A DNA stretch of 64,000 bases from Shigella phage KNP5: the sequence record KX452698; one strand, 5' to 3'. This document shows, piece by piece, positions 40,220 through 41,050 of the stretch; positions within the stretch are counted from its first letter, which is position 1; each line of letters begins with the position of its first letter. The notes beneath the pieces are model-generated. The model searched no databases. It was not told the DNA's origin and was given only the letters and a program-made list of their open reading frames with translations. The position numbers were made by a program, and so were the translations under genes.

Positions 40220-40295
40220 GGTCGAGACAGTAGGGATCGAACCTACGACCTAGGACTTAGAAGGTCCTTGCTCTTCCTTCTGAGCTATGCCTCGT
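40220..40295 (-). tRNA. tRNA-Arg (anticodon UCU), CCA encoded
   Basis: Cloverleaf folded by hand; anticodon loop CUUCUAA; T-arm GUAGGUUCGAUCCCUAC. Confidence 0.8.
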
Positions 40296-40299
40296 ATTT

Positions 40300-40374
40300 G
40301 GCGGACATGCATGGATTCGAACCATGGACCAATTGATTAACAGTCAACTGCTCTACCACTGAGCTACACATCCA
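40300..40374 (-). tRNA. tRNA-Asn (anticodon GUU), CCA encoded
   Basis: Acceptor GGAUGUG/CAUGUCC, anticodon loop CUGUUAA, T-loop GGUUCGAAUCC. Confidence 0.7.
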
Positions 40375-40378
40375 AATT

Positions 40379-40465
40379 GGTGGGGAGTGATGGAGTCGAA
40401 CCACCCGAGTCGCAATGACAATGGATTTACAGTCCACACCGCTACCTCTACGGGATAACTCCCCT
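40379..40465 (-). tRNA. tRNA-Tyr (anticodon GUA), long variable arm, CCA encoded
   Basis: Acceptor GGGGAGU/ACUCCCC, anticodon loop CUGUAAA, class II extra arm. Confidence 0.7.
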
Positions 40466-40477
40466 AATTCTTAATTT

Positions 40478-40552
40478 GGTGGCCCTGGGTGGAATTGAAC
40501 CACCATCTGGCGATTATGAGTCGCTTGCTTGAACCTTCCAGCTACAGGGCCT
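40478..40552 (-). tRNA. tRNA-Ile (anticodon CAU, probably lysidine-modified; tRNA-Met not excluded)
   Basis: Perfect acceptor GGCCCUG/CAGGGCC; anticodon loop CUCAUAA; adjacent to tRNA-Thr as in the T4 Thr-Ile dimer. Confidence 0.75.
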
Positions 40553-40553
40553 T

Positions 40554-40629
40554 GGTGCTGATTGACGGAATCGAACCGCCGACCTTCTCATTACAAGTGA
40601 GTTGCTCTACCTACTGAGCTAAATCAGCA
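40554..40629 (-). tRNA. tRNA-Thr (anticodon UGU)
   Basis: Acceptor GCUGAUU/AAUCAGC; anticodon loop CUUGUAA. Confidence 0.8.
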
Positions 40630-40634
40630 AAACT

Positions 40635-40724
40635 GGCGGAGGCGATAGGATTTGAACCTATGAGTCGCCGGAGCGACTGCCGGTTTTCAAGACCGGTGCA
40701 TTAAACCACTCTGCCACGCCTCCA
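40635..40724 (-). tRNA. tRNA-Ser (anticodon UGA), long variable arm
   Basis: Acceptor GGAGGCG/CGCCUCC; anticodon loop CUUGAAA. Confidence 0.8.
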
Positions 40725-40726
40725 GT

Positions 40727-40800
40727 CTCCATACAAGGATTTGAACCTTGGACCTCCTGATCCCAAATCAGGCGCTCTACCAAACTGAGCTACACGGAGT
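40727..40800 (-). tRNA. tRNA-Pro (anticodon UGG), CCA not encoded
   Basis: C1-G72 acceptor; anticodon loop UUUGGGA; 2 nt from tRNA-Ser (dimeric precursor arrangement). Confidence 0.75.
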
Positions 40801-40810
40801 AAATTAAATT

Positions 40811-40884
40811 GGAGCGGATAATGAGAATCGAACTCACATCATCAGATTGGAAGTCTGAGGTAATGCCATTATACGATATCCGCA
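40811..40884 (-). tRNA. tRNA-Gly (anticodon UCC)
   Basis: Acceptor GCGGAUA/UAUCCGC; anticodon loop CUUCCAA. Confidence 0.8.
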
Positions 40885-40889
40885 AATTT

Positions 40890-40976
40890 GGTGCGAGAAG
40901 TGGGACTCGAACCCACAAGGAAATCATTCCGCAGCATTTTAAGTGCTGTGCCTTTACCAATTTGACCATTCTCGCG
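40890..40976 (-). tRNA. tRNA-Leu (anticodon UAA), long variable arm
   Basis: Acceptor GCGAGAA/UUCUCGC; anticodon loop CUUAAAA. Confidence 0.8.
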
Positions 40977-40977
40977 C

Positions 40978-41050
40978 TGGGAATAAAGGACTCGAACCTT
41001 TGCATCCTGGAATCAAAATCCAGTGCCTTACCAACTTGGCTAATTCCCAA
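40978..41050 (-). tRNA. tRNA-Gln (anticodon UUG), CCA not encoded
   Basis: U1-A72 acceptor UGGGAAU/AUUCCCA; anticodon loop UUUUGAU; 1 nt from tRNA-Leu. Confidence 0.75.

Follow-up and report, generated by a model that had tools for sequence, protein, structure and literature searches.

The 64,000 nucleotides of Shigella phage KNP5 analysed here (KX452698; the whole stretch is called the window below) carry, on the minus strand at 40219-41049, a cluster of ten transfer RNA (tRNA) genes. This cluster is very probably the standard tRNA operon of Tequatrovirus in its segB-less form, of the RB3/RB1/T2L type, in which a single transcript would both supply tRNAs and cushion the phage against host defence, and whose distal part is a cassette that SegB can replace. 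The arrangement is already known and is not special. It was described in 2008: the nearest match in print, the RB3 record AJ884578 from the SegB paper of that year (PMC2330249), lists these ten tRNAs in an identical order and then rnaD and rnaC, and RB3, RB5, RB6, RB7, RB9, RB10 and RB27 have each been published with 10 tRNAs. Our reading has little weight for genome annotation, since hundreds of GenBank records annotate the cluster already. What it does illustrate is that clusters can agree in their anticodon set and still differ in their genes: Ile and Arg of the window belong to a cassette other than that of T4.

The ten tRNA genes

ARAGORN finds exactly 10 tRNA genes in the 64-kb window, all in this minus-strand cluster, in the order Gln-UUG, Leu-UAA, Gly-UCC, Pro-UGG, Ser-UGA, Thr-UGU, CAU, Tyr-GUA, Asn-GUU and Arg-UCU. 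An earlier reading of the sequence (the original prediction) had proposed the same ten genes with the same anticodons, and its coordinates were right to within one base; the software keeps both the Asn and the Tyr model with the anticodons proposed, and labels the CAU gene 'Met'. Rfam agrees, with 10/10 tRNAs above the gathering threshold of 29 for RF00005 (range 30.2-72.9 bits). The nine tRNAs other than Tyr score 59-73 bits, with E values of 1e-10 to 1e-14.

Read from the promoter-proximal end, the genes are as follows. tRNA-Gln (UUG, 40976-41049) adjoins tRNA-Leu and is identical to the RB3 gene, and tRNA-Leu (UAA, 40889-40975) is identical to those of T4, T2 and T6 at 87/87 positions. tRNA-Gly (UCC, 40810-40883) matches T4 at 73/74, tRNA-Pro (UGG, 40725-40799) is called by both ARAGORN and Rfam, and tRNA-Ser (UGA, 40634-40723) is identical to that of T2 (90/90). 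tRNA-Thr (UGU, 40553-40628) has A27 opposite A43, a mismatch at a position that is a C:G pair in T4; the mismatch (window 40602 and 40586) sits at the top of the anticodon stem and is also found in Sfk20, UGKSEcP2, JoYop and Elenatom. The CAU gene (40477-40551) is a T2-type allele, the class II tRNA-Tyr (GUA, 40378-40464) matches T2 at 86/87 and T6 at 85/87, tRNA-Asn (GUU, 40299-40373; 72.6 bits with RF00005) is a minority allele, and tRNA-Arg (UCU, 40219-40294) is again of the T2 type.

Eight genes, Leu, Gly, Ser, Thr, Ile, Tyr, Asn and Arg, encode the CCA end and only Gln and Pro do not, as had been claimed and as the gene ends read directly confirm. In T4, by contrast, four genes (Gln, Pro, Ser and Ile) do not encode it; where the tRNA-Ser of the window ends in CCTCCGCCA, that of T4 ends in CCTCCGTAA, with TAA in place of CCA, and the T2 gene encodes CCA as in the window. 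The tight junctions that the original prediction had proposed for Gln-Leu, Pro-Ser and Thr-Ile are present, with 1 nucleotide between the Gln discriminator and Leu, 2 between the Pro discriminator and Ser, and 1 between the CCA of Thr and Ile. In the interval from the CAU gene to Arg the spacers are 4-12 nucleotides long, and tRNAs fill the whole interval.

The two calls that invite doubt are those of the Tyr and CAU genes. tRNA-Tyr is the weakest RF00005 match (30.2 bits against a threshold of 29), a score that is usual for class II tRNAs, whose variable arm is long. Drawn by hand, it forms acceptor, anticodon, variable and T arms, and its D stem has a single C-C mismatch. The marginal score, together with a minimum-free-energy fold that is not a cloverleaf, could be taken to indicate a pseudo-tRNA, just as the 'Met' label given to the CAU gene by ARAGORN, GenBank and the RB3 record could be taken to indicate an elongator tRNA-Met; we regard either error as highly improbable. 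Lysidine-type isoleucine tRNAs are always labelled 'Met' by software. For tRNA-Tyr, ARAGORN accepts the gene, and the near-identical T6 tRNA-Tyr (85/87) is detected on Northern blots and is functional (PMC13096335).

The CAU gene, for its part, is most likely a tRNA-Ile2 of the lysidine type and not a tRNA-Met, as its features suggest and as the original prediction had assigned it, because it carries the pairs C4:G69 and C5:G68 and is closer to ileX than to metT. The 4:69 and 5:68 pairs are the main identity elements for E. coli TilS (PMC11947777), which the gene would therefore fit. Its acceptor stem is GGCCCTG/CAGGGCC, against GGCTACG/CGTAGCC in metT, its anticodon arm (GCGACTCATAATCGC) has the same sequence as the arm of E. 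coli ileX, and its overall identity is 76% to ileX versus 66% to metT. In all, we found nothing that contradicts the identification of the ten tRNA genes.

Replacement and probable mobility of the distal cassette

T4 (NC_000866, 70.9-72.6 kb) has in common with the window the genome position, the middle promoter motif, the proximal genes from Gln to Thr, rnaD, rnaC and the terminator. Its gene order is Gln, Leu, Gly, Pro, Ser, Thr, Ile, segB, Arg, rnaD, rnaC; it differs from the window in having segB between Ile and Arg, and in lacking Tyr and Asn genes and an open reading frame (ORF) of 116 amino acids that we call ORF116. From upstream of Gln to 12 nucleotides into Ile (41155-40540) the window is 96.6% identical to T4 over 617 aligned columns, and homology resumes at rnaD (39852-39513, 90.5%). 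Between 40540 and 39852 there is no alignment to T4. The Ile gene of the window is 63% identical to that of T4 and 100% identical to that of T2, and the corresponding values for tRNA-Arg are 66% and 97%. Judged by these alignments, the distal block from nucleotide 13 of Ile through Tyr, Asn, Arg and ORF116 is a non-homologous replacement of the T2 type.

The original prediction had described Asn and Tyr as inserted between the Ile and Arg genes of T4. A simple insertion into a T4 backbone is ruled out by the positions at which homology breaks, inside Ile and at rnaD, and by the divergent Ile and Arg alleles. Since these two genes are different alleles from those of T4, the accompanying statement that the cluster contains the eight canonical T4 species is true of the anticodons and not of the genes. 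A stable RNA had also been placed between Ile and Arg in T4; only segB lies there, and rnaD and rnaC are both downstream of Arg.

Close relatives of the window are numerous. Over the 1-kb cluster region, identity is 99.9% with Escherichia phage KNP1 and 97-98% with many Tequatrovirus genomes; 398 records of the phage collection have at least 80% of this region covered in one place, and 417 cover the Tyr-Asn segment. Shigella phage Sfk20 is annotated with the same ten tRNAs. The RB3/RB1 cluster (AJ884578, AJ884577; Brok-Volchanskaya et al. 2008, PMC2330249) lacks segB, as does the window, and the Gln, Leu, Gly, Pro, Ser, Ile and Tyr genes of RB3 are 100% identical to those analysed here, with Arg at 74/76. 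RB3 differs in its Thr gene (69/76), in its Asn allele, which gives only a 22-nucleotide local match, and in having no 116-amino-acid ORF, where the window has one between Arg and rnaD. The distal cassette is shared with T2/T2L (AP018813; AJ880101): the CAU gene is 100%, Tyr 99% and Arg 97% identical, and the same 116-amino-acid ORF follows. T2 differs elsewhere, having an ORF in place of Thr, which leaves nine tRNAs, a Gln anticodon arm of the T4 type, and another Asn allele.

A small survey of relatives (T4, T2, T6, JoYop, RB3, Sfk20, UGKSEcP2, Elenatom, SA20RB and one contig from IMG/VR) reveals a mosaic architecture. T4 has 8 tRNAs and segB, T2 has 9, and RB3, Sfk20 and the window have 10. 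For T6, 6 tRNAs are annotated upstream of segB in the stretch examined, of which ARAGORN finds 5, and JoYop has 9 tRNAs with a gene for an HNH endonuclease in the place of Gln. UGKSEcP2, Elenatom and the IMG/VR contig have 11, the additional gene being a tRNA-His between Asn and Arg; this eleventh gene, tRNA-His(GUG), was located in close relatives at L002 2467-2542, L014 1690-1765 and L011 4355-4430. ORFs for endonucleases or of unknown function thus stand in for individual tRNA genes in relatives (L013 283-891; L005 3711-4112; L017 1814-2474): besides the HNH gene of JoYop and the ORF that T2 has where Thr would be, SA20RB has a SegB-like gene after its CAU tRNA. Mobile nuclease genes seem to have landed in the cluster repeatedly.

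SegB itself was not found in the window: tblastn of T4 SegB against the whole stretch gave a best E value of 1.4. Its target probably is present, in the 3' half of tRNA-Asn. SegB prefers a 27-bp site that lies within tRNA-Asn of T2L, and homing excludes the Met/Tyr/Asn/Arg block of T2L, which is non-homologous to the block in T4 and is replaced in 99.6% of the progeny of a cross (PMC2330249). Applying the position numbering of that paper to the T2 sequence, we worked out which 27 bp the site comprises; the tRNA-Asn of the window agrees with it at 23/27 positions, including all five discriminating ones (G6, A16, G18, A26, A27). In mixed infection with T4-type phages, the published work leads one to expect that phages of this segB-less group would lose their cassette through SegB homing.

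Replacement on this scale raises the question of whether the distal cassette is largely passenger DNA, in other words, whether homing endonucleases (SegB, HNH) and recombination simply shuffle a non-essential region in which tRNAs are not individually selected. The mosaic architecture across T4, T2, T6, JoYop and the relatives with 11 tRNAs would fit this idea, as would the near-complete loss of the T2L block in crosses and the fact that the region was called non-essential in the 2008 paper (PMC2330249). We nevertheless consider it improbable. All ten genes have intact cloverleaves and high model scores, and the cluster is kept in ~400 genomes. Moreover, the Asn allele of the window, which is 84% identical to that of T2, differs from it mostly by compensated stem changes, a pattern that argues for purifying selection on structure. 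This Asn allele is an uncommon one: only 55 phage records carry it at or above 95% identity, and phage JoYop has exactly this allele (75/75). A scan of IMG/VR for exact allele patterns returned two contigs only, too few for a survey, and our literature search for earlier surveys of Tequatrovirus tRNA alleles gave mostly off-topic papers.

Codon supply and host defence

The original prediction suggested that the extra tRNAs compensate for codon usage or for host nucleases, and both suggestions are reasonable, being consistent with codon counts and with experiments on the tRNA-Tyr of T-even phages. For the codon counts, the phage ORFs in the window were compared with a small host sample, ~13,000 codons of E. 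coli K-12 ORFs. Per 1000 codons, the phage ORFs contain 46 for Tyr and 63 for Asn, where the E. coli sample has about 25-26 and 44-47; on the late-gene strand Asn rises to 72 and Tyr to 50 per 1000. In absolute excess AAT ranks second and TAT sixth. The cognate codons of the ten tRNAs have a median phage/host ratio of 1.70, versus 0.87 for other codons (Mann-Whitney p = 0.0017), and all ten cognate families are over-used except for AAC. For the AAY and UAY codons, whose comparison had been proposed, AAT and TAT are strongly over-used and the Asn and Tyr totals raised, with AAC as the exception.

These counts would accord with a pure supply of codons or amino acids, under which the Tyr and Asn tRNAs exist only because an AT-rich proteome needs more Tyr and Asn (TAT, AAT): both amino acids are in excess over the E. 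coli sample and more so on the late-gene strand, and the over-use extends to every cognate family but AAC. As a complete explanation we find it somewhat doubtful. E. coli already has several genes for each (tyrT and tyrV; asnT, asnU, asnV and asnW), so these are not rare tRNAs, and T4 manages without Tyr and Asn genes. The largest codon excess of all is that of AAA, for which the cluster has no tRNA-Lys. A tRNA-His is present in addition in close relatives despite the under-use of CAT and CAC, which together make up 16.6 per 1000 in the phage ORFs against 23.8 in the host sample. Four tRNAs have GUN anticodons with queuosine at the wobble position and are the targets of colicin E5; three of them are those for Tyr, Asn and His.

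Published work on defence systems bears on the same genes. Septu EcB88 cleaves tRNA-Tyr in the variable arm; dosage of the T6 tRNA-Tyr rescues infection, T4, which has no tRNA-Tyr gene, cannot escape, and T2 is resistant (PMC13096335). The T6 tRNA-Tyr is itself cleaved by Septu (PMC13096335), so that any protection would be by dosage and not by resistance. Retron-Eco7 acts in the same mode against T5, and the tRNA-Tyr of T5 counters it (PMC11555353). The AriB nuclease of PARIS targets Lys, Thr(UGU) and Asn(GUU) tRNAs, and viral tRNAs rescue infection (PMC12409363). The tRNA-Tyr of the window is 98% identical to the anti-Septu gene of T6 (85/87), without a segB in the window to amplify it, and two of the species targeted by PARIS, Asn(GUU) and Thr(UGU), are both encoded in the window. 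On the basis of the published work, we would expect T-even phages of this tRNA-Tyr-carrying, segB-less group to plate better than T4 on hosts with Septu or retron-Eco7.

It is possible, if tentative, that the operon is primarily an anti-defence device, in which Tyr, Asn and Thr are kept since the PtuAB of Septu and retron-Eco7 depletes Tyr and AriB depletes Lys, Thr and Asn, with the phage copies replenishing the pool or acting as decoys. The T6 rescue, with T4 sensitive and T2 resistant, and the targeting of Asn(GUU) and Thr(UGU) by AriB speak for it, as does the presence in some relatives of tRNA-His, which codon usage cannot explain. However, no experiment is known to tie a T-even tRNA-Asn to a defence system, the T6 tRNA-Tyr is cleaved, and codon over-use alone would favour the same genes. 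The Asn allele also fits poorly. Around the site between positions 40 and 41 at which AriB cuts, it reads U36-A-A-U-C followed by A, and the host tRNA UAAUC followed by C, so that position 41 is the single difference; UAAGC followed by G is found in the T2-type allele, and the Thr gene of the window UAAUG followed by A, with a C40-to-G change. Since this host-like UAAUC motif is recognised by AriB and stands, with A41, as a good match to its site, the Asn tRNA is not obviously nuclease-resistant, and any help that it gives against PARIS would come from supply and not from resistance.

Allelic differences within the cluster lie mostly in the anticodon arms, and this variation could be read more boldly still. 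Compared with T4, tRNA-Gln has 8 substitutions at nucleotides 27-43 (window 41007-41023) and 0 elsewhere, the arm being CTGGA-TTTTGAT-TCCAG in the window and TAGCA-CTTTGAC-TGCTA in T4, with T2 and T6 as T4. The window type occurs in 289 records at 99% identity or more and the T4 type in ~235; the window arm also resembles those of other Tevenvirinae genera and of the host. This rules out the idea that the Gln allele of the window is the unusual one. Because the window type is the commoner and is like that of other genera and the host, the arm of T4, T2 and T6 (C32, C38) is, on this comparison, the derived form. Such observations, namely the Gln arm dimorphism, the Thr 27:43 pair, a fully swapped Asn anticodon stem and the endonuclease-driven shuffling of cassettes, could together be the signature of a fast-evolving counter-defence island, with alleles of the T-even tRNA operon selected for resistance or susceptibility to host nucleases that cut anticodon arms (PARIS AriB, OLD-family, PrrC-like). 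We think this unlikely; were it true, the rare, host-like Asn of the window would be a distinct functional variant, a decoy or a supplement, and not a resistant tRNA.

Codon supply and defence evasion are both plausible and are not mutually exclusive, and our preferred reading, an ordinary segB-less operon that does both, combines them. We propose that transcription most likely starts from a MotA-dependent middle promoter upstream of Gln and yields one long transcript, which would span the ten tRNAs, ORF116, rnaD and rnaC and end at an intrinsic terminator. Host enzymes would cut this precursor into tRNAs, including those of the Gln-Leu, Pro-Ser and Thr-Ile dimers, and would add CCA to Gln and Pro. 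The mature tRNAs may then top up the host pool for the A/U-ending codons that the AT-rich phage over-uses, and the added Tyr tRNA, and probably the Asn and Thr tRNAs too, may cushion the phage against host defence nucleases that destroy tRNAs. When a phage with SegB, such as T4, is present, its SegB would cut a cassette of this kind, preferentially in tRNA-Asn, and replace it. Gene content, gene order, alleles, homology breakpoints and codon counts were computed here; transcription, processing and the balance of the two benefits we infer.

Several points weigh against this combined reading. The promoter, the processing of the precursor and its expression are carried over from T4, and for the phage in the window the functional part, plausible as it is, rests on phenotypes of T6, T4 and T2. 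The host sample behind the codon comparison is small, and with AAA in the greatest excess and no tRNA-Lys, codon supply predicts the tRNA set poorly. On the side of defence, Septu cleaves even the T6 tRNA-Tyr, and the Asn of the window has no obvious escape substitution at 39 and 40, the kind of change (of U39, for example) that marks nuclease resistance in the tRNA-Lys of T5.

The proposed transcription unit and its flanks

The sequence from promoter to terminator, taken with the published T4 operon, suggests that the whole is transcribed as one unit. In T4 a middle promoter immediately upstream of the cluster gives rise to a primary transcript of ~1.75 kb that ends after the species I RNA (PMC2330249). 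In the window a putative MotA-type middle promoter at 41119-41146 (minus strand) occupies the position that it has in T4; a pattern match there gives the motif ATTTGCTTTA, then 12 nucleotides, then TATTAT. A scan for sigma-70 promoters did no better than shuffled sequence (6 against 5.9 expected). At the other end, an intrinsic terminator on the minus strand at 39522-39545, with a 10-bp stem containing 7 G-C pairs followed by TTTTT, is conserved in T4 and T2.

Between the tRNAs and the terminator are ORF116 and the two stable RNAs, all on the minus strand. ORF116 (39852-40202), which lies between tRNA-Arg and rnaD, belongs to phrog_3355 (E 9.5e-54), a family whose function is unknown; T2 and Sfk20 have this ORF, T4 and RB3 do not. 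Its stop codon is the point at which homology to T4 rnaD starts. The homologue of rnaD, the species II stable RNA (39741-39852), is identical to T4 at 95/116 positions, with conserved ends and a divergent middle, and that of rnaC, the species I stable RNA (39596-39734), at 137/139; an overlapping alignment to RB3 rnaC (window 39733-39594) is identical at 140/140. A permissive Rfam scan of 39300-41200 gave no family for rnaC or rnaD, and its other matches were below-threshold artefacts that overlie tRNA genes, in several cases on the other strand.

Beyond the rnaC terminator, in ~500 bp that are absent from T4 and precede the region homologous to T4 e.8/e.7, there is an ORF of 157 amino acids (ORF157, 38994-39467, minus strand; phrog_2280). 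Neither ORF116 nor ORF157 has a match in Pfam, and PHROGs assigns both only to families of unknown function. The window also contains two masked runs of 99 N bases each, at 5556-5654 and 41416-41514, the second of which breaks ORFs just upstream of the tRNA promoter.

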